DNA of 24,147 nucleotides from Acidobacteriaceae bacterium (GTDB lineage Bacteria > Acidobacteriota > Terriglobia > Terriglobales > Acidobacteriaceae): NCBI GenBank assembly GCA_035689925.1, contig DASSKX010000344.1, positions 1-24,147 of the forward strand. Direction: 5' to 3'. Each line of letters begins with the position of its first letter. Positions within the stretch are counted from its first letter, which is position 1. Shown here piece after piece: positions 1 through 9,564 of this stretch. The position numbers and the translations under genes were made by a program. The notes below the pieces were generated by a model that was not told the DNA's origin, ran no database searches, and saw only the letters and a list, made by a program, of their open reading frames with translations.

Positions 1-786
1 CGCGAGGGAACGCTGACCGCCGCCGGCGAGCTGCTGCGCGGCTACGCCGAACGGCTGCTGCGCCTGCGGGGCGAGGCAGCGACCGCTCTCCAGGAATTGC
101 GCTCGCTGCAACGCGGCCAGCTCACCATCACCGCGAACGAATACACCTGTCTGTGGCTGCTGCCGGTGCTGGACAGCTTCCGCCGCGGCTATCCGCAGAT
201 CGGCGTCACGGTGCAGCGGTCGCTCGCGAGCCAGATCCCGGATCAGCTGCTCGAGCGTGCCATTGAGTTCGGCATTCTCTCGTTTCGTCCCGACAACGAG
301 CGGCTGAACGCGATCGAGGTGTACACGGACAGCGTCGCGTTCGTCGTCGATCCCCGGCATCCGCTGGCGAAGCGTGCGTCGGTGTCCATTCGCGATCTGG
401 GGCAGGAGAATTTCGTGGCGCACATCGTAGCGTCTCCGCTGCGGCGCCGCGTGATCGAAACCTTCGCCAGCCACGCAACGCCGTTGAACATGAGCGTGGA
501 GCTGCCCAGCCTGGAGGCGATCAAGCGCTTCGTGATGCTCGGCAACGGCGTGGCGCTGGTGCCCGGCCTCACCGTGCAGCCGGAACTCGCGCGCGGCGAT
601 CTGGTGCAGGTTGAAGTCCCGGAGCTGAAAATCGCGCGCCGCCTTTGGCTCGTGCACCGCAAGCCGGCGAGCCTGTCGCATGCGGGCGAAGCGTTTCTCA
701 GCGTCGTGAGAAATCTTGCCGTCGAACGAGGACATCCGTTCGCCTTTCGCGTCGAACAGGCGGAGGGCGCTTCGGCGCGCGAGTAA
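1..786 (+). CDS. LysR-family transcriptional regulator (5'-truncated by window edge)
   Basis: Frame is open from base 1 (REGTLTAAGELLRGYAERLL = end of LysR HTH and linker helix), followed by a substrate-binding domain with typical segments (LLPVLDSFRRGYPQI, SLEAIKRFVMLGNGVALVP); stop TAA 784-786. Confidence 0.9.
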   Translation, partial: REGTLTAAGELLRGYAERLLRLRGEAATALQELRSLQRGQLTITANEYTCLWLLPVLDSFRRGYPQIGVTVQRSLASQIPDQLLERAIEFGILSFRPDNERLNAIEVYTDSVAFVVDPRHPLAKRASVSIRDLGQENFVAHIVASPLRRRVIETFASHATPLNMSVELPSLEAIKRFVMLGNGVALVPGLTVQPELARGDLVQVEVPELKIARRLWLVHRKPASLSHAGEAFLSVVRNLAVERGHPFAFRVEQAEGASARE

Positions 787-934
787 CGACCTGCGGAACG
801 CTGTAGAAATGGCTCGCGGCAGGTACAATGACACGGTAGACATCCCATTGATGTTTGCTACTTCACGGAGCCTGGGAATGAACTGCCCGGGAGGGCGAAA
901 TCCCGCAGGGCGTTGTAAAGAGGTTGACCACCGA

Positions 935-1546
935 ATGAAGAAATCGCTGTTCGTGTTTGCTCTGCTGCTGCCGCTCGTCGCGGCGCCGTCTTTTGCGCAG
1001 GAAGCCCGTCAGGACATCAGCATCAGCGGGTCGATGCTCAACGCACCCTTCGCCTCCGGAAATGCGGTGCAGCTTCATGCGACGCCTGGTTACGGCGCGC
1101 TCGTGAGCTACCGCTACGACATCACCCCGCACGGCGCTCTCGAGCTGAATTACGCCTACCACCAGAACGTGCAGTACTACTCGTATCCCGCCGGCAAATA
1201 CCACATCCACGATCGGGCTCAGGAAATCTCCGGCGCGTACGTGTATTCCTTCTACTTCCGCAACCTGAATCCCTTCCTAGAGGCGGGGCCGGCTGCGATC
1301 ATGTTTTCACCCATTGACGATGCGAAGACCAACATCTTCGCCACTGACCTGAAGCGCAACACCGCAGTCGGCCTGCTGTACGGCGGCGGCATCGCCTACG
1401 AGATCAGTCCGAGCTTCGACATCCGGGCGGAGGTCCGCAGCCTGGTCGTGAAGACGCCCAGCTTCGGATACTCGGGGAACACGCTGCGCACCGGCGTCTA
1501 CTACAACATCGTCGATCCGACGATCGGCATCGCCTATCACTTCTGA
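935..1546 (+). CDS. Small outer-membrane beta-barrel protein (OmpA/OmpW-like, about 8 strands)
   Basis: ATG 935 after GAGG; signal peptide MKKSLFVFALLLPLVAAPSFA-Q; alternating aromatic strands (GALVSYRYD, LELNYAY, PFLEAG, GGGIAYEI); C-terminal Phe (GIAYHF), typical BAM signal. Confidence 0.8.
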   Translation: MKKSLFVFALLLPLVAAPSFAQEARQDISISGSMLNAPFASGNAVQLHATPGYGALVSYRYDITPHGALELNYAYHQNVQYYSYPAGKYHIHDRAQEISGAYVYSFYFRNLNPFLEAGPAAIMFSPIDDAKTNIFATDLKRNTAVGLLYGGGIAYEISPSFDIRAEVRSLVVKTPSFGYSGNTLRTGVYYNIVDPTIGIAYHF

Positions 1547-1562
1547 GCGCGGGCAGAAACAC

Positions 1563-1591
1563 AAAGGCCGGGCAGATTTGCCCGGCCTTTT
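1563..1591. terminator. Bidirectional intrinsic terminator
   Basis: Perfect 12-bp stem AAAGGCCGGGCA-gatt-TGCCCGGCCTTT with A/T tracts on both sides, between two convergent genes. Confidence 0.85.
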
Positions 1592-1612
1592 CTATTGCGC
1601 TCGAAGCTTGTC

Positions 1613-2230
1613 TTAATATCCCAGGAGTCTCCATGCGACGCCGATGCTGAAGCCGTTCGGAGTGAGACCGCTGCCGTGCGTGACGACCTGGCCTGTTGAG
1701 CTGAACGTTGGCGGCCCGGTAAAGGACGGCAGGAACTCGTAATCGTATTCGGCGCGAACCATCAGCCGATCGCTGAGGCGATAGTCCAGATCCGCACCGG
1801 GAGCGACAGCAAAATAGCTGCCCTTGAGGGTGCCGGCCTGCGGATAGCCCGGCGTCTGCAGCCACATGCCGCCCAGATTGAGTTTGCCGTGCAGCGACCA
1901 CGGCTCGTGGTGCCACAGGCGGTAGCGCGGCCCGACCGTGTAGCTGGATTCTTTCTGGCCCCCAACTCCGTGCCAGACCAGCCAGCGGGCATCGCCTTCG
2001 AGGCTGAGCTTATTCGTAAAACCAAGGTCAAAAAAGGCCGTGGGACCGTACAGGGTGTCGTGCCAGCACGTGAAGACGATGTTGGTGGAGCAGCCAAAGT
2101 CCGGGTTGTAAATCGAAACCTCACCGCCGGCCCAGAGTTTTCCCTGACCTCCAACGGCCGATCGCGGACTCTGTGCTGTCAGCAGGGTGGGAAGAAGGAA
2201 GAATGCCAAAAGCCCGATAGATTTCTTCAC
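1613..2230 (-). CDS. Small outer-membrane beta-barrel protein
   Basis: GTG start with GGAG upstream; signal peptide; amphipathic strands (LSLEGDARW, YTVGPRYRL, PGADLDYRL, VRAEYDYEF, GFSIGVAWR); Cys pair CSTNIVFTC. Confidence 0.75.
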   Translation of the reverse strand: MKKSIGLLAFFLLPTLLTAQSPRSAVGGQGKLWAGGEVSIYNPDFGCSTNIVFTCWHDTLYGPTAFFDLGFTNKLSLEGDARWLVWHGVGGQKESSYTVGPRYRLWHHEPWSLHGKLNLGGMWLQTPGYPQAGTLKGSYFAVAPGADLDYRLSDRLMVRAEYDYEFLPSFTGPPTFSSTGQVVTHGSGLTPNGFSIGVAWRLLGY

Positions 2231-2378
2231 TTTCAGATCTCCGGTACAGACAAAATGCGAACGTCGGCCGTTTGAGAAGACGCCCGCTTCATAAAACCCA
2301 CTGCGTGCGGGCGGGATGTGGCGAGCGAATCATTTTTGTCCGATCACCCGGTCACTTCCCGTCCATAATCGACCCCGG

Positions 2379-4163
2379 CTATTGCGGCTGGGGCTGAGCC
2401 TGCGGCTGAGACTGAGCATTGTTCGAAGGCTGCGCCGGACCGGCATCCGCGGAGGGCGGAGGTGCGGCGTTTCCGGCCGCCGGCGTCGCGTTCGCCGGTG
2501 CGGTGCCCGGCTGCTGATAACGCTCCAGCTTGTAGTAGACCGGCGTGATCTCCAGAGGCATCTTGTCGCGGGCATTCAGCAGGACCGGAGCCGTGAAATG
2601 CAGCTGGGTAACCTTGTCGTCCCAGGGATCAATCTTCAGGCGGCTGTTGAGCGGAAGCGCGGCGATCTGCTGCATGTTATCCATGTCCAGCTTCGGCGCT
2701 CCCTGCGTGAGGGCAGCGAGCCAGGGGGTACCGTCGGGGCGCATGATGGGATCGCCCAGGCGCGGGGTGAAGAGCGCAGGCAGGTCCTTTTCGCGGGCCT
2801 GCAGCTGTTCAAAGAAGAGGCCCACACCGGCGGCCTTGTCCTTGATGTAGGAGTGCTGGAAGAGCTCAACGCCCTTCTTCGCGGCGGACTCGTCATCCGG
2901 TATGGAGTGGTCCATCGTGATGCGCTGGAAGCTGGCTGAATCCGGGAAGAGCAGCCGGTCGTTGAAGGCGTAGCGCGTGTCGATGTGGTGGCCGAGCGCG
3001 ATGTGCGCCAGCTGGAACGAGAGCACCGCAACGAGCGATTCTTCGTTGGGGAGCACGTCGATCAGGCCTTTGCTCAGCAGGATGGTGTTCCCCACAGCCA
3101 GCGATTCCAGCGGTGCGGTCAGAATGACGCGGCAGTGCACTTCGCCGGGAAGCTGCAGGTTGTTGCTGATGATGATGTTGTTGGTGACCGTTTCGAGCAG
3201 CTTGTCGTAGTCGCTGACCGGGGCCACCAGACCTGCCTGGGTCAGGCGATCGAGCACATTGTTCTCAGCCTGAGAGATCCATTCGCGCTCGGCCTGGAGC
3301 GGACTCACGTCGCTGGAGTTCTCGCTTTGATCCTGCGCGTTTTCCACCATGATGGATTCGGAATCGGTCTCGCTGACCGGAAGCTTGAGCGAGTAGCCCC
3401 AGTAGAGCGTCTGGCCGCGGAAGCTCTGCGCCTTGCCCGTCGCGCCATGCAGCGTGTCTTCGATGTAGACCGCAGCCGGGGCCCACAGGCCGGGCTGCAG
3501 GTTCATGCGCCAGCTGTCGAAGTGGAAATAGTGCGAGGTGTCGTTGTTCGGGTTGTTGATATAGGTGCCGTTGAAGCGGACCAGATTGCCGTCCTGATCT
3601 TCAATCCAGATGCGCCCGATGAACCGGCCCACGCCGTTCTGCTTCGGCCGGACGTCAAACACCCAGGTACGCACCGTGCCGAGGAACTCGCGGCGGACGA
3701 ACTGGAAGTTGTAGTGCTGCTCGTCGTAGCTCGTCGGATCGAGAAACATCATCGACATGAAACCGGTCGGGGAGTTCTCGAGGTGAAAGGCCTTGGTCAG
3801 CTGAGAGACGAACTTCATGGAGCCGCCGAAGAAGCTGGTGTGCTCCTGCCGCATCGAGTACTCATCGGCAACAAAGGCTTTGCCGAAATCGACGCGCCCC
3901 ACCATGAACTGGTCCGACACCGGGATCTGATACAGGTGCGGATCGGGCCGCATGTTCTGGATATAGGTCTGCACAACCGGCGTGCTCTTCTCGATCTGGC
4001 GAATGACCGTCTTCTCGTGGGTCATCGATTCGTCGACCAGATGCTTCTGTTCCGGAGTAAGCGGGTGCAGAGGGAAGACTTCCCTGGGACGGTTCTTTTT
4101 GGCCTGAGCTGCAGGTATGGCGAGCACCAGGGCAATGCCGAAGATCATGCACTTACGAAACAT
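2379..4163 (-). CDS. Secreted protein: N-terminal LolA/MucB-like beta domain + M48 peptidase-like domain with degenerate zinc motif + Pro/Gln/Ala tail
   Basis: ATG 4163 preceded by AGGAG; signal peptide ending AAQA; M48-like segments (VILTAPLESLAVGNTILLSKGLIDVLPNEESLVAVLS-FQLAH-IALGH); beta-rich segment REFLGTVRTWVFDVRPK..GRFIGRIWIEDQDGNLVRFNG resembling lipoprotein-sorting (LolA-like) proteins. Confidence 0.7.
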   Translation of the reverse strand: MFRKCMIFGIALVLAIPAAQAKKNRPREVFPLHPLTPEQKHLVDESMTHEKTVIRQIEKSTPVVQTYIQNMRPDPHLYQIPVSDQFMVGRVDFGKAFVADEYSMRQEHTSFFGGSMKFVSQLTKAFHLENSPTGFMSMMFLDPTSYDEQHYNFQFVRREFLGTVRTWVFDVRPKQNGVGRFIGRIWIEDQDGNLVRFNGTYINNPNNDTSHYFHFDSWRMNLQPGLWAPAAVYIEDTLHGATGKAQSFRGQTLYWGYSLKLPVSETDSESIMVENAQDQSENSSDVSPLQAEREWISQAENNVLDRLTQAGLVAPVSDYDKLLETVTNNIIISNNLQLPGEVHCRVILTAPLESLAVGNTILLSKGLIDVLPNEESLVAVLSFQLAHIALGHHIDTRYAFNDRLLFPDSASFQRITMDHSIPDDESAAKKGVELFQHSYIKDKAAGVGLFFEQLQAREKDLPALFTPRLGDPIMRPDGTPWLAALTQGAPKLDMDNMQQIAALPLNSRLKIDPWDDKVTQLHFTAPVLLNARDKMPLEITPVYYKLERYQQPGTAPANATPAAGNAAPPPSADAGPAQPSNNAQSQPQAQPQPQ

Positions 4164-4258
4164 TCCTGACTCCTGACTTTCTTCCAGCGGGTACTGCCGG
4201 TGCCGGGATTCCCAGTGCGGTCCACGAAAAAAGCCGCACTGGGAATTGTGACCCGAGC

Positions 4259-5338
4259 TCACGCCATCTGGAAAGTGACGTGGATGATACTGACCTGATC
4301 CACGGGGTGGCCGTTCTCCGTCGCCGGCTTGAAGCGAATCCGCTCCGCTGCGACTTTGGCCTGCTCATCCAGGCCATGGCCAAGTCCGCTGACCACAGCC
4401 AGCACCTGAACCTGCCCGGACGCCAGGAAACGGACTTTGAGCGTGACGTCGCCCTCGATCCGCAGCCGGCGAGCTTCCGCCGTGTATTCCGGAAGCGGCT
4501 TCGACAGGACAACGATCGGGGTGGGGACGGACTCGGTCGGCCGCACCGGACGCGCGGTAGCGCTGCCGTACGGATCGCTGCCGAAACCGGCCTGTGCGAT
4601 CGTGCCCTTGCTGCCCGGCTTACCGGTGCCACCCACCACGCCGTCAGAGAATCCGGCGGAAGCGATGGTCCCGCGATCATGTCCTCCGGCAACGCCGTGT
4701 GCCACACCTGAACCGAACTCGACACCATGAACAGAGCCCGCGCGCGCAGCGCCCGCGCCCGTGGGACCAGATCCCGGAGCGGCATTGAAGTCACCGACTG
4801 CGGCGATCGTCGCCGGCCGGCTGGCGCTCGGGTTCGGCTTCGCGCCATTCGGATCGCCAAACCCGCCCGTCTTGATCGTCGGGTGCGACATGTTGTTCGC
4901 GACAGCGGTCGGAGTCACGCTCTTGAACAATCCAAGCTTCGGTTGCGGCGGAGGCGTGACGCGCTTCGGCGGCGCCGCTTCCATCTTCGGAAGCATCGGC
5001 GTCGGCATCTTCACTTCGGCAATCTTCGGCGGTTCCGGCTCCGGTTTCGGCAGCGAGAGCTTCGGAGTCTCGTGCATCGCGGGCGGCGGCGGAATGTATT
5101 TGATCTGCGGCGCCGGCGGTGGAATTGGCTTGGGCTGCTCGATCGGAAACACCAGTTGCGTAACGTACTTTTCCTGTTCGTGCACCTGGTGCACCTGAGC
5201 CATAGCCAGCAGCAGGGCCAGTCCTGCCACGGTGACATTCACAACCATGCTGGCGCCGAACGAGCCCATGCGCCCTTCGGGCTCGGGGAGGAGTCCAAAT
5301 CTGGCGGGTTGAGGATACGTGTAGTTATTCGTCGCCAT
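4259..5338 (-). CDS. tonB: Energy transducer TonB-family protein
   Basis: Single N-terminal TM helix, Pro-rich spacer, Gly-rich region, TonB_C domain (PEYTAEARRLRIEGDVTLKVRFLASGQV..GLGHGLDEQAKVAAERIRFKPATENGHPV). Confidence 0.9.
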   Translation of the reverse strand: MATNNYTYPQPARFGLLPEPEGRMGSFGASMVVNVTVAGLALLLAMAQVHQVHEQEKYVTQLVFPIEQPKPIPPPAPQIKYIPPPPAMHETPKLSLPKPEPEPPKIAEVKMPTPMLPKMEAAPPKRVTPPPQPKLGLFKSVTPTAVANNMSHPTIKTGGFGDPNGAKPNPSASRPATIAAVGDFNAAPGSGPTGAGAARAGSVHGVEFGSGVAHGVAGGHDRGTIASAGFSDGVVGGTGKPGSKGTIAQAGFGSDPYGSATARPVRPTESVPTPIVVLSKPLPEYTAEARRLRIEGDVTLKVRFLASGQVQVLAVVSGLGHGLDEQAKVAAERIRFKPATENGHPVDQVSIIHVTFQMA

Positions 5339-5818
5339 AATGCTTCAAAATCCCAACTGTGAGAGGTTCGACGGCTCCGCGATCATCGGCCCGGCGCAAG
5401 GATCTGCATTTGCACTTCTGAGACCAAATACCGTCTGGTCTCTCAGGCCCCTCGGGTACTGCTCCCACGCATCCGGCGAACAGGGGGCCAGGAAGAACCG
5501 GGAAATCGCGGGAGGTTACTGAATATGGTTACTTTTTAGCACACTTTGGGTACATTCTGTCCCTACAACTTTACGGTTGCTGCGCACCCTTCTTGGGTGA
5601 TTTCTTGTCTGACGCAGTTCCCGCTGCTTTCGTTTATTGAACCCTCAAAAATGAAAAAGGTGGCTCCCACAGGATAGTGTGGTTGTGCCATTCAGGCCAC
5701 CGCCGTCTGTGAAATCCTTTTGGATATATTGCAAAGGAAGGCTTCGTGTGGTTCGCCTGAGACCTGATCGGCTGAAAACAATCAGGCTGGCGGATCTGGA
5801 TTGCGGAGGAGGTACAGG

Positions 5819-6802
5819 TTGAAGATCCTCGTCACCGGGGGCGCGGGCTACGTCGGGGGCACGGTCGCAGCGATTCTTCGCGATCGCGGCCACGACGTCA
5901 CCATCTACGACAACCTTTGCCATGCGACCCGTTCCCTGGTGCCGCCCGGCACCACATTTATTGAGGGCGAACTCGCCGATCGCGACCATCTCGGGCGAAT
6001 CCTCCGCACAGGCTTTGATGGCGTGATGCACTTTGCCGCCCTCATCGAAGCGGGCGAAAGTATGGCCAAACCCGAACTTTACTTTCGTAATAACACAGCG
6101 GCGACGCTCTCGTTGCTGGAGTCCATGCTCGCGAGCGGCATTTCGAGGCTGGTGTTCTCCTCCACCGCCGCCGTTTACGGCGAGCCGGAGAGCACCCCAA
6201 TTCGCGAAGACGCGCCTCTGCGCCCGACGAATGCCTATGGCGAGTCGAAACTGCTCGTGGAAAAAATTCTCACCTGGATGTATCGCGTACACGGCCTTTC
6301 CTACGCCAGCCTGCGCTATTTCAACGTCGCCGGCGCGGCAGCCGACCGGGGAGAGGCCCATGAGCCGGAGTCGCACCTGATCCCGCTGATTCTCGACGTG
6401 GCGCTCGGACGGCGGCAGAAGATCATGATCTACGGCGACGACTACCCCACAGCGGATGGAACCTGCGTTCGCGACTACGTTCATGTGGAGGATCTGGCGG
6501 AGGCCCACCTCATGGCCTTCGAGGCCCTGGCCCAGGGCGGCCAGCGCATCTATAACCTGGGGAATGGAAGCGGCTTTACCGTGCGGCAAGTGATTGAATC
6601 GGCACGCCGCGTGACCGGACAGCCGATTCCCGTCGAGGTGGTGCCCCGGCGGCCGGGAGACCCGGCGATTCTGATTGCCAGTTCAGAAAAGATTGGCCGG
6701 GAGCTGGGGTGGAAGCCTCGCCACACCGAACTGGACGGGATTGTCGCCAGCGCCTGGGAGTGGCACCAGCGGCGTTACCTGGAAGCCCCCGCAAACGCCT
6801 AG
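5819..6802 (+). CDS. galE: UDP-glucose 4-epimerase GalE
   Basis: TTG start at 5819 after strong SD GGAGGAGG; KILVTGGAGYVG, HFAALI, FSSTAAVYG, YGESK (YxxxK), LRYFNVAGA, DGTCVRDYVHVEDLA. Confidence 0.93.
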   Translation: MKILVTGGAGYVGGTVAAILRDRGHDVTIYDNLCHATRSLVPPGTTFIEGELADRDHLGRILRTGFDGVMHFAALIEAGESMAKPELYFRNNTAATLSLLESMLASGISRLVFSSTAAVYGEPESTPIREDAPLRPTNAYGESKLLVEKILTWMYRVHGLSYASLRYFNVAGAAADRGEAHEPESHLIPLILDVALGRRQKIMIYGDDYPTADGTCVRDYVHVEDLAEAHLMAFEALAQGGQRIYNLGNGSGFTVRQVIESARRVTGQPIPVEVVPRRPGDPAILIASSEKIGRELGWKPRHTELDGIVASAWEWHQRRYLEAPANA

Positions 6803-6836
6803 CCTGCGGACAGGGCTTCCGCCATCGCCAGGCAGC

Positions 6837-7121
6837 TTACTTCTCGACCTCGACCCCGCGCCAGAAGGCGATGTGGTTCTTGATGTTACGTGCAGCAGGA
6901 TTTGGATTCGGATAGTACCAGGCGGCGTCCTGATTCTCCTGGCCGTCCACCAGCAGGCTGTAGTACCGCGCCTGTCCCTTCCACGGGCATGTTGACGTGG
7001 TGGAACTCGGTCGCAGATATTCGCGGTTCACTGCGCTTTCCGGGAAGTAGACGTTGCCCTCGACGGTCTCGTAAGTTTCACTTTCTGCAATAGTTTTTCC
7101 GTTCCAGACTGCCTTGGCCAT
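6837..7121 (-). CDS. DUF427 domain protein
   Basis: MAKAVWNGKTIAES..VEGNVYFP..STCPWKGQARYYSL..AAWYYP: characteristic DUF427 signature (CPWKG..A.YY, AAW.YP); ATG 7121. Confidence 0.88.
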   Translation of the reverse strand: MAKAVWNGKTIAESETYETVEGNVYFPESAVNREYLRPSSTTSTCPWKGQARYYSLLVDGQENQDAAWYYPNPNPAARNIKNHIAFWRGVEVEK

Positions 7122-7303
7122 CTCTCGCCTTTCAATCTCAACCTTCAACACATTAGCAGATGCGCGAACCCCTGCAAATGTCGCGGCTGCCACCCTTGCG
7201 ATGCGGACAGCCGGTTTGCGGAGTGGTTCCGGCCGCGAGCAACGTCCGGTTATGGACCCGCCCTTCTCACCTGTGCAAGGCTGGCGGCTCGGAGGTGTTT
7301 TCG

Positions 7304-7810
7304 ATGGCCACGAACGTCCAGCGGCGGACCGTTGACTTGTCCGCATTCCCCGACCTGGTAGTGATCTATCTCGGAATGCGCGTCAACCGCCTGACCGGGC
7401 TCAGGACCTTATTTGGCTTCGGGCCGCAGATCAGCAAGTCGGCGGCCGCTCGTCCCGACGGACTGCTCCGCCACGAGAACATCATGTATTCGCTCTTCCC
7501 CATGCACATCGGCATGCGGCAGTACTGGCGTGATATGGATGCGCTGCTGCGCTGGACGCGCTCCGACCCGCACCGCGTCTGGTGGCGAAACTTTCTGCGC
7601 GATTCCGGCGGCACAGGCTTCTGGCACGAAACGTACATGCGCCGCGGCGGCATGGAAGCGATCTACGACGACGTGCCGGTGCCGGTTGGCATGATGGCCT
7701 TCGCTCCGGTCATCCCGGCTCGGGGCGCGATGTTCGGGGCAACGCATCGGGCGGGCGCTGCCGCCGCCTCCGAACCTGTCCTGACGGAGCAGGACCTGTA
7801 CGGCGGCTAG
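7304..7810 (+). CDS. DUF4188 / monooxygenase af470-like (aldoxime-dehydratase-related) protein
   Basis: ATG 7304 after GGAGG; DLVVIYLGMR, RQYWRDMDALLRW, H..WW..F, GTGFWHETY..GGMEAIY match my recollection of DUF4188. Confidence 0.75.
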   Translation: MATNVQRRTVDLSAFPDLVVIYLGMRVNRLTGLRTLFGFGPQISKSAAARPDGLLRHENIMYSLFPMHIGMRQYWRDMDALLRWTRSDPHRVWWRNFLRDSGGTGFWHETYMRRGGMEAIYDDVPVPVGMMAFAPVIPARGAMFGATHRAGAAAASEPVLTEQDLYGG

Positions 7811-9184
7811 CTAACCGCGCGCGGCTTCCCCAAAGAAGCGGATGACCGACTCGATGCCGCGATGGAAGTTGGGGATGTGGAACTTCTCGTTCGGCGCGTG
7901 CAGCCCGTCATCGGGAAGGCCGAAGCCCATCATCACCGAGGGAATCTTCAGGTTGCGTTCGAAGTCGCCGACGATCGGAATCGATCCACCGGAGCGGATA
8001 AAGACGGTGTCCTTGTTCCAGACCGTCTTCATCGCGCGCGTCGCGGCCCGAATCCAGGGATTGTCTGTCGGGATCAGCGACGCCTCCCCGGAATGAATCA
8101 GGCGCACGTCGACCGAGACGCCCTCGGGACACAGTGACTGCACATATTCGCTGAACTGGCGAAACGCGGTCTGCGGCTTCATCTTCGGAACCAGGCGCAT
8201 CGAGATTTTGGCCGTCGCCTTGGCCGGAATAACCGTCTTGGCGCCCGCGCCAGTGAATCCGCCGACGATGCCGTGGACGTCGAGCGTGGGGCGCGCCCAG
8301 GTGCGCTCGAGGACGGAGTAGCCCTTTTCGCCGACTAGTTTGCTGGCGCCCACCTCGGCGGTTCGGTACTCCTCCTCGTTGAAGGGCAGGTTCTTCCAGG
8401 CTTTCAGCTCTGCCTCCGACGGCTTCTGCACGTCGGCGTAGAAACCAGGAATCAGGATACGGCCGTCACGGTCCCGGAGCCCGGCGATGATGTGGGCCAG
8501 CGCGATGAACGGATTCGGAGCCGCGCCGCCGTACATCCCGGAGTGCAGGTCGGTCTTCGCGCCGCGGACTTCGACTTCGGTGTAGATCATGCCGCGCAGC
8601 CCCACGCAGAGGGTGGGCAGTTCCGGAGCGAACATCTCGGTGTCGGAGATGAGCGCAAAATCAGCCTTCAGGCGCTCCGGGTGCTCGCGGACGAAGGCTT
8701 CGATCTGCTCGCCGCCGACTTCCTCCTCGCCCTCGTAGATCACGCGGATGTTGATCGGCAGCTTGCCGTCATGGGTCTTCAGGATCGACTCGAGGGCTTT
8801 GAGCTGGGTCACGAGCTGCCCTTTGTCGTCCACGGCCCCGCGCGCGTACAGGTTCTGGTTTCGCTCCGTCGGCTCGAATGGCGGCGTAACCCACTCGTCG
8901 AGCGGATCGGGCGGCTGCACATCGTAGTGCGCATAGCAGAGGCAGGTGGGCTTGCCGGGCACGCGAAGCCAGTCGGCGTAGACGAGCGGGTGCCCGGACC
9001 CCCGGATGACCTCAACGTGCTCCATCCCGATGCGGCGCAGGTCGGCAGCCACCCACTCGGCGGCCGCTTCGACATCTTTCTTGTGCTCGGGCAGGGTGGA
9101 GACGGAGGGGATGCGGAGCAGGGCTTTCAGGTCGTCGAGGAAACGCGCGGCATTCTCCCGCGCGTACGCAACAGCAGCATCCAT
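7811..9184 (-). CDS. M20/M25/M40 family metallo-dipeptidase
   Basis: ATG 9184 after GAGG; YAHYDVQP, LYARGAVDDKGQ, YEGEEEVGG, DLHSGMYGG, GGSIP, HAPNEKF metal-ligand motifs. Confidence 0.92.
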   Translation of the reverse strand: MDAAVAYARENAARFLDDLKALLRIPSVSTLPEHKKDVEAAAEWVAADLRRIGMEHVEVIRGSGHPLVYADWLRVPGKPTCLCYAHYDVQPPDPLDEWVTPPFEPTERNQNLYARGAVDDKGQLVTQLKALESILKTHDGKLPINIRVIYEGEEEVGGEQIEAFVREHPERLKADFALISDTEMFAPELPTLCVGLRGMIYTEVEVRGAKTDLHSGMYGGAAPNPFIALAHIIAGLRDRDGRILIPGFYADVQKPSEAELKAWKNLPFNEEEYRTAEVGASKLVGEKGYSVLERTWARPTLDVHGIVGGFTGAGAKTVIPAKATAKISMRLVPKMKPQTAFRQFSEYVQSLCPEGVSVDVRLIHSGEASLIPTDNPWIRAATRAMKTVWNKDTVFIRSGGSIPIVGDFERNLKIPSVMMGFGLPDDGLHAPNEKFHIPNFHRGIESVIRFFGEAARG

Positions 9185-9215
9185 GAACGGCACCTCAGGC
9201 GCAATGCAAACGTTG

Positions 9216-9262
9216 AGTATACGGCAGGGGTGACGGGGAGATTTTTCAGGCTTTTCTATACT
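9216..9262. promoter_or_regulatory. Back-to-back -10 hexamers (TATACT on each strand) for dipeptidase and TA operon
   Basis: AGTATA 9216-9221 (TATACT on minus) and TATACT 9257-9262 (plus) within the 89-bp divergent gap; no clear -35. Confidence 0.45.
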
Positions 9263-9273
9263 GGAGGCGGCAC

Positions 9274-9564
9274 ATGAGACCCTCGGAAGCACTCGCTCGC
9301 CATCGTGATGAAATTCGCCGCATCGTCTCCGCGAATCGGAGCGCCAACCCCCGTGTGTTCGGATCAGTCCTGCGGGGCGAGGACGAGGAAGGCAGCGATC
9401 TCGATTTGCTTGTCGATCCAACTCCGGAGACAAGCCTCATGGACGTCGCCCGGATCCAGGGTGATCTGGAAGTGCTGCTGGGAATTTCAGTGGATGTCCT
9501 CACCCCGTTGAGCCTGCCGGAATCGTACCGTAGTCGCGTGCTGGCTGAGGCCGCACCGGTATGA
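9274..9564 (+). CDS. mntA: Minimal nucleotidyltransferase (MNT) antitoxin, MntA-like
   Basis: GSVLRGEDEEGSDLDLLV = G-S-x10-D-x-D; 96 aa; SD GGAGG; ATGA overlap with the next gene. Confidence 0.9.
   Translation: MRPSEALARHRDEIRRIVSANRSANPRVFGSVLRGEDEEGSDLDLLVDPTPETSLMDVARIQGDLEVLLGISVDVLTPLSLPESYRSRVLAEAAPV

Follow-up and report, generated by a model that had tools for sequence, protein, structure and literature searches.

What does a protein with the fold of a zinc metalloprotease do when the residues expected to hold the zinc have been replaced? The question is raised by a gene on a 24,147-nucleotide stretch of DNA from an Acidobacteriaceae bacterium (GenBank assembly GCA_035689925.1, contig DASSKX010000344.1, positions 1 to 24,147 of the forward strand), the whole of which we call the window. 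The gene encodes a protein of 594 residues, hereafter the query, in which a LolA-like domain precedes a domain resembling the M48 peptidases and the signature HExxH motif reads FQLAH. A reading of the DNA made before this work, the original prediction, had proposed a non-catalytic periplasmic chaperone or cargo carrier. Our analysis leads us to a soluble periplasmic pseudo-protease, which is probably a non-proteolytic binder that works with a TonB-like protein and, in its own clade, also with a small outer-membrane barrel protein.

The zinc site is degenerate

In the query, AVLS-FQLAH-IALGH occupies residues 379-392 and DDESAAKKG residues 423-431. To place these segments we compared the motif classes in an alignment of 90 full-length representatives (Table 1). 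The profile of the HExxH class aligns its E-x-x-A-D block with NEQEAD of Escherichia coli BepA, and by this alignment the block is the third-ligand motif of M48 enzymes. As read from these columns, two of the three zinc ligands are gone from the query (Phe for His and Asp for Glu), as are the catalytic Glu, now Gln, and the supporting Asp, now Ala. The original prediction had called the first His ligand as Phe, the catalytic Glu as Gln and the third-ligand region as altered, and all three calls stand, at F383, Q384 and D424 with A428, respectively. At the third-ligand position the clade of the query has Asp or Asn.

Table 1. Residues at the catalytic and zinc-ligand positions in the two motif classes and in the query
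Position	HExxH-type	FQxxH-type	Query
383	H	F 94%, W 5%	F
384	E	Q 100%	Q
424	E 95%	N 70%, D 29%	D
427	A 100%	A 100%	A
428	D 71%, N 19%	A 94%	A

The substitution is shared by the orthologues, as the original prediction had suggested checking by alignment. FQLAH is invariant in 22 of 22 orthologues down to 60% identity. We also scored the motif in the 120 closest clusters at 90% identity, which are 60-87% identical to the query, and obtained 107 with FQLAH, two with YQLAH, nine with FQLAQ, one with FELAQ and one with FELAH; none of the 120 has HExxH. The ten clusters with Gln at position 387 (FQLAQ and FELAQ) have lost all three canonical ligands.

These residues also bear on whether the protein is still an enzyme, that is, a divergent hydrolase with a rebuilt metal site or another mechanism, using for example H387, H392, H419, D423 and D424. 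In favour of it, H419 never varies within the degenerate clade, whereas HExxH-type relatives differ there (R 47%, H 19%), H392 is retained in 94% and D423 in 82%, and the surroundings of the old active site rank among the best-conserved parts of the protein. In the FQ group, however, Gln stands in the place of the general base; about 70% of the representative clusters of the clade have Asn, a poor zinc ligand, at the position of the third ligand, and there are sub-clades with M, L, W or I at position 383. The presence of Gln at 387 in ten of the closest clusters further argues against a conserved replacement site built on H387. We therefore regard a rebuilt enzyme as improbable.

The product is expected in the periplasm and is variously named. 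Translation of the gene starts at the ATG at position 4163, which is preceded by an AGGAG Shine-Dalgarno box and matches the start of all orthologues in the alignment (M-x-R-K, then a hydrophobic stretch to A-Q-A). The first 21 residues have the pattern of a type-I signal peptide, which is kept in orthologues, and residues 2-21 are helical in the predicted model. Since this signal peptide has no lipobox, the protein should be soluble and periplasmic. At NCBI the orthologues are divided between several entries named 'M48 family metalloprotease' and others named 'hypothetical protein'. Mislabelling as a protease by automated pipelines had been foreseen, and for the degenerate clade the name 'M48 family metalloprotease' is almost certainly wrong.

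Active-site loss is old and has recurred in the family

Of 8,000 scored candidates, 7,439 matched as homologues. Clustering at 50% identity gave 1,422 representatives, 324 of them at an E value of 1e-30 or better, and a FastTree tree was built from 134 full-length members. In this tree the query lies in a clade of 46 rows with 100% support, each row of which is degenerate, with FQxxH or M/L/W/I-ExxH sites plus N/D-x-x-A-A. On the other side of the tree stand 88 rows, 36 of which have intact HExxH together with the Glu of the third-ligand motif. The label intact or degenerate changes at least 13 times on the tree, with 8 changes forced by well-supported branches, a count that is approximate. 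Examples of eroded motifs are RELAH, DELAH, SELAH, HQxxH, QELAS and LGLAR, and distant members of the two-domain family retain HExxH and ExxAD. Because the fold is homologous to that of active M48 enzymes, the intact HExxH is ancestral and most of the changes are losses.

The distribution of the family was surveyed in 401 genomes of the phylum. Within the window's own family 33 other genomes were searched, and 30 of them had a full-length two-domain match, of the degenerate or the HExxH type; full-length matches also occurred in a few genomes from other families. Elsewhere in the phylum, where the two-domain protein was not found, only stand-alone homologues of the N-terminal domain (about 280 residues) turned up, and these are widespread. 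The genomes inspected carry either degenerate-clade or HExxH-type copies, never both together; in one genome (L048) a distinct copy, highly divergent and degenerate in its motif, accompanies the HExxH copies. The source genome is 68% complete, and elsewhere in it there are at least five canonical M48 genes.

The loss of catalytic residues, taken alone, would point to a gene in decay, a protease allele inactivated recently and left without a function. The reading frame is intact, however, the orthologues carry the same substitutions across many genera at 60-87% identity, full-length matches are found in nearly all other genomes of the family, as given above, and synteny is conserved. A functionless pseudogene is excluded on these grounds, and we give the decaying-gene explanation practically no chance. 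The loss of the site is old and fixed across the whole Acidobacteriaceae clade, and the lone decayed allele that had been named as a possible refutation of the original prediction is not what was found.

Among the longer homologues no TonB fused in the same chain was found. Two metagenomic relatives have unusual architectures, which could be real or could be fusions made by gene calling. In one (P0204, 655 residues) a Poly_export/SLBB (Wza-like) part replaces most of the LolA-like domain before an M48-like domain with SELAH, and the other (P0148, 891 residues) has a C-terminal DUF900 alpha/beta-hydrolase domain.

Predicted folds of the two domains

An AlphaFold2 model of the full protein, built from a 66-sequence alignment, had a predicted local distance difference test score (pLDDT) of 85 and a predicted template modelling score of 0.83. 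In this model the N-terminal domain, residues 35-266, matched 3bk5 (Z 9.2), 3buu (Z 9.1), LolA3 (Z 8.9) and DUF1329 (Z 8.6). Because these Z values exceed the background of the aligner only moderately, the domain was also folded independently (pLDDT 84.6) and compared with 48,161 representative chains with no Foldseek prefilter. The five best matches were then LolB 8cm1 (Z 9.5), 3bk5 (9.0), 3buu (8.7), DUF1329 (8.4) and LolA3 (8.3), and further LolB and LppX entries ranked next.

Sequence profiles place the domain less directly. The N-terminal domain of the query gives no match in Pfam, and among the 66 family members PF17131 LolA_like matches three, weakly, and PF03888 MucB_RseB matches two (best E 2.5e-6). 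The domain is predicted to have a LolA/LolB-superfamily fold, with no detectable profile match of its own. The same genome encodes, on contig C46 (L049:20-967, minus strand), a stand-alone homologue of 315 residues that scores 30.3 bits with PF17131, for which the gathering cut-off is 30.

The C-terminal domain, residues 288-527, matched BepA (6ait) with Z 14.1 over 201 aligned residues at a root-mean-square deviation of 4.0, 6sar with Z 12.8 and the Geobacter M48 peptidase 3c37 with Z 12.4. Foldseek matched it to the M48 fold at E 2e-5, and the M48 gluzincin fold with its edge strand beside the active-site helix is present in the predicted model. The Pfam family Peptidase_M48 (PF01435) matched residues 358-396 of the query at E 0.0033 and 17.7 bits, under the cut-off of 20.3, and NCBIfam gave a faint LoiP match. 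Across the family, 43 of 66 members matched Peptidase_M48 at E up to 0.01 (best 1e-10). Searches of PDB sequences with the query and with family profiles gave marginal matches to M48 chains (E 0.09-0.16), and the M48 relationship rests on the fold comparison and on the Pfam matches of relatives. For both domains, the folds named in the original prediction are those of the model.

Conservation is focused on the former substrate cleft

An entropy scan of the degenerate clade gave residues 348-367 (LTAPLESLAVGNTILLSKGL) as the 20-residue window with the least variation. Alignment with 3c37 places this segment at the strand pair just before the active-site helix, including the equivalent of the M48 edge strand. 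The window of residues 385-404 ranks fifth. As judged from these sequences, the protein is under strong purifying selection that is focused on the former substrate cleft, above all on the edge-strand region, with which M48 proteases hold a substrate as an added beta-strand.

The edge strand of BepA binds LptD by strand addition and is needed both for degradation and for a chaperone-like activity that is non-proteolytic (PMC8423444), and the query keeps this region. The standard protease-dead form of BepA, E137Q (PMC8423444), carries the same Glu-to-Gln change that is natural in the query. The combination of the Glu-to-Gln form with a retained edge strand fits a protein that would hold a client without cutting it.

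Linkage to a TonB-like gene and a small barrel gene

The gene directly upstream, ending 95 nt before that of the pseudo-protease and on the same strand, encodes a TonB-like protein. We compared 48 loci, among them the window's own and three duplicate contigs, and in 41 of these the same strand carries a TonB-like gene directly upstream, for intact and degenerate forms alike. The linkage, which is new here, extends to relatives at 28-37% identity that have HExxH or HQxxH, and locus L005 carries the upstream gene as well. Among the seven loci where it was not seen, L006 and L031 are truncated by the end of the contig; in the other five (L043, L046, L047, L048 and a truncated duplicate of L004) no TonB-like gene was found upstream, and three of these five are additional copies, in genomes where another copy does have its TonB neighbour.

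Common to the partner proteins are a cytoplasmic F-G-L-L-P-E motif immediately ahead of the transmembrane helix and, in the periplasmic linker, the conserved Gly-Phe motifs TGGFGDP and VASAGF. In the source genome the helix of the partner reads S-M-V-V-N, the His of S-x3-H being replaced by Asn, and only one of eight TonB_C reading frames, that of the upstream partner, has the FGLLPE and GFG motifs. By these features the partner belongs to a distinct TonB-like subtype. No ExbB, ExbD or TonB-dependent receptor was present among the open reading frames scanned at positions 1-9433 (ExbBD were not sought in the remainder of the genome), and no gene for ExbBD or a TonB-dependent receptor adjoins the unit in L001, L002 or L004. 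Prediction of a complex between residues 22-560 of the mature pseudo-protease and the periplasmic residues 150-359 of the TonB-like protein, with both entered as alignments, gave a score of 0.01 (mark 0.32), which speaks neither for nor against binding.

A small outer-membrane beta-barrel gene follows the pseudo-protease gene in the window. Homologues of this barrel lie downstream on the same strand in 19 degenerate-clade loci, as a tandem pair in two genera, and none was found downstream in the HExxH-type loci. No terminator-like site was detected between the three genes, and the sole one on the strand follows the barrel gene. The original prediction mentioned neither of the two neighbours, nor that intact and degenerate sites alternate within a large family.

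A separate reading frame of 376 residues in the source genome (contig C254, about 2217-3350, minus strand) has a zinc-finger-like anti-sigma motif, H-x3-C-x2-C, at its N-terminus and a TonB_C domain at its C-terminus. In this genome TonB_C appears to serve also as the periplasmic module of a signalling protein.

A non-cutting binder and the alternatives to it

These data allow a model to be put forward. The protein would bind an extended or hydrophobic client of the envelope without cutting it, and would act as a holdase, adaptor or carrier. Candidates for the client are lipids, lipoproteins and unfolded outer-membrane proteins. It would act together with the dedicated TonB-like inner-membrane protein and, in the degenerate clade, in concert with the small outer-membrane barrel. 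A chaperone or carrier role is suggested by the predicted folds, by the conservation of the edge strand and by the precedent of BepA. We consider a non-proteolytic binder of this kind the probable answer to the question posed above.

Several points weigh against this reading. The Z values of the N-terminal domain (8-9.5) are only modestly above the background of the aligner. Loss of activity is deduced from the residues, and H392 and D423, which the clade keeps, may form an alternative, non-canonical metal site with H419, an invariant His that it has gained. Adjacency of genes is not proof of a physical interaction between the products. Finally, the FastTree tree has several long branches and comes from a quick rather than a thorough search, which makes the number of independent losses approximate.

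The same linkage could be read in terms of regulation. In an RseB/MucB-like sensor, the LolA-like domain would sense a lipid or a mislocalised envelope component, and the dead protease domain would clamp the periplasmic linker of the TonB-like or another single-pass protein, controlling its availability or cleavage and not chaperoning a client. The MucB_RseB Pfam matches in two relatives speak for this, as do the MucB and RseB structures, which match the N-terminal domain at Z ~6, and the family-wide linkage to a single-pass membrane protein; the Gly-Phe motifs of the TonB-like linker could be docking peptides. The cytoplasmic part of the TonB-like protein, however, has about 25 residues, too few for an anti-sigma domain, no gene for a sigma factor, an anti-sigma factor or a regulator is linked to the unit, and RseB and MucB are structurally weaker matches than the LolA/LolB-type proteins. 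A sensor or regulator seems unlikely to us, though it deserves to be kept in view.

The non-cutting binder can also be extended into a bolder proposal. The TonB-like protein, the protein with LolA and M48 folds and the small barrel might together make up an unrecognised trans-envelope machine, in which the dedicated TonB paralogue, using the proton-motive force, would drive a periplasmic carrier or holdase to deliver or extract hydrophobic cargo (a lipid, a lipoprotein or a nascent barrel) at a plug-less, eight-stranded outer-membrane protein. Such a system would depend on TonB without a TonB-dependent receptor, and the ancestral HExxH forms would add a proteolytic quality control with which this clade has dispensed. 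We offer this as speculation and would not expect it to hold in full.

Relation to known systems

We found no paper on this family of LolA-like/M48-like proteins. The closest characterised relative of the C-terminal domain is E. coli BepA (YfgC), a periplasmic protease and chaperone of the BAM (beta-barrel assembly machinery) pathway, which is the best structural match and which the query may also resemble in a chaperone-like mode of action. Unlike the query, BepA has intact HExxH and ExxAD motifs, binds zinc, has no linked TonB-like gene and shares about 12% sequence identity. It also docks on BAM by a C-terminal tetratricopeptide repeat domain, whereas the query has the LolA-like domain at its N-terminus instead; the match covers residues 45-299 of BepA only, and after residue 527 the query continues as an extended segment and a disordered tail with no helical repeats. 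With neither HExxH nor ExxAD, and below the Pfam threshold, the query is, as far as its residues tell, not an M48 peptidase in the functional sense.

The N-terminal domain shares the predicted long helix and open half-barrel with the LolA/LolB superfamily (PF17131 3bk5 and 3buu, DUF1329 4z48, LolA3 and LppX/LprG), but in the query it is fused to a protease fold, has no Pfam match of its own and is not linked to LolCDE. RseB and MucB, like the query, are two-domain periplasmic proteins with a LolA-like N-terminal domain, and they bind the periplasmic part of a single-pass membrane protein. They differ in a C-terminal domain that is unrelated to M48, and their partner is the anti-sigma factor RseA or MucA.

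A coupling of an HExxH-type peptidase domain to TonB_C is also seen in fusions of M56 (BlaR1-type) peptidases with TonB_C, such as the uncharacterised TonB1 (BT0813) and TonB10 (BT3898) of Bacteroides thetaiotaomicron (PMC10350073). There the two parts form one chain, whereas here they are encoded by neighbouring genes. The M56 domains are embedded in the membrane, whereas the query is predicted to be soluble, has a LolA-like domain and appears catalytically dead in this clade. By analogy, the combinations of HExxH peptidases with TonB_C suggest a recurrent functional link, but the architectures differ.

The family is large and places intact and eroded active sites on one scaffold, and so provides a natural series for the study of a non-cutting M48 fold. 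Its association with a special TonB paralogue suggests an envelope function that is linked to TonB but involves no classical TonB-dependent receptor. Soil Acidobacteria have many unexplained TonB paralogues, and how their envelope is built is little known.

Features of the locus and its surroundings

The features of the unit are collected in Table 2. Between the two domains of the pseudo-protease, the pLDDT drops at residues 265-269, and D278, Q279 and S280 of the linker are invariant in the orthologue alignment.

Table 2. Features of the three-gene unit, with positions in the window
Feature	Position	Strand	Basis
Pseudo-protease gene, 594 residues	2379..4163, stop codon included	-	Open reading frame translation, Shine-Dalgarno box, orthologue alignment
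Signal peptide, residues 1-21 (MFRKCMIFGIALVLAIPAAQA), predicted cleavage after AQA, no lipobox	4101..4163	-	Sequence, orthologue pattern
N-terminal domain, residues 35-266, long helix and open beta half-barrel, LolA/LolB superfamily	3366..4061	-	Predicted fold
Acidic interdomain linker, residues 267-287, conserved D-Q-S	3303..3365	-	Model and alignment
C-terminal domain, residues 288-527, M48/BepA-like gluzincin fold	2583..3302	-	Predicted fold
Edge-strand region PLESLAV-GNTILLS, residues 348-367	3063..3122	-	Entropy scan, alignment to 3c37
FQLAH in place of HExxH, residues 383-387	3003..3017	-	Translation, orthologue alignments
D-E-S-A-A in place of the E-x-x-A-D third-ligand motif, residues 424-428	2880..2894	-	Column frequencies, profile alignment to BepA
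Low-complexity C-terminal tail rich in Pro, Ala and Gln, residues 555-594	2382..2501	-	pLDDT <50, length differs among orthologues
TonB-like gene, 359 residues: FGLLPE, transmembrane helix with S-x3-N, Pro-rich and Gly-rich linker, TonB_C	4259..5338	-	PF03544 E 2.7e-13
Perfect inverted repeat of 13 bp, an RNA hairpin, within the 95-nt spacer that separates the TonB-like and pseudo-protease genes	4208..4246	-	Fold energy
Small outer-membrane beta-barrel gene, 205 residues, downstream	1613..2230	-	PF13505 E 1.4e-8
Terminator-like hairpin with 12-bp stem, closing the three-gene unit	1563..1590	-	Terminator scan

The hairpin in the spacer upstream of the pseudo-protease gene has, as minus-strand RNA, a fold energy of -36.8 kcal/mol (z -6.2). 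It does not look like a classical terminator, because its U-run sits in the loop and not behind the stem. Possible roles are in processing or stability, or in attenuation, by which the proportion of the two products would be set. A repeated element like the repetitive extragenic palindromic sequences was considered and rejected, as there is one exact copy in the genome.

A second barrel gene of family PF13505 (935-1546, plus strand) converges with the downstream barrel gene of the unit, and the same convergent pair is present in Silvibacterium acidisoli (L001). A recent duplication was rejected as the origin of the two window genes, which have no pairwise similarity. On the other side of the unit lie genes for an NAD-dependent epimerase/dehydratase (5801-6802, plus strand), a DUF427 protein (6837-7346, minus strand) and an M20 peptidase (7811-9433, minus strand). 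The DUF427 and M20 neighbours look unrelated to the unit, and the epimerase gene adjoins it in Silvibacterium too (L001).

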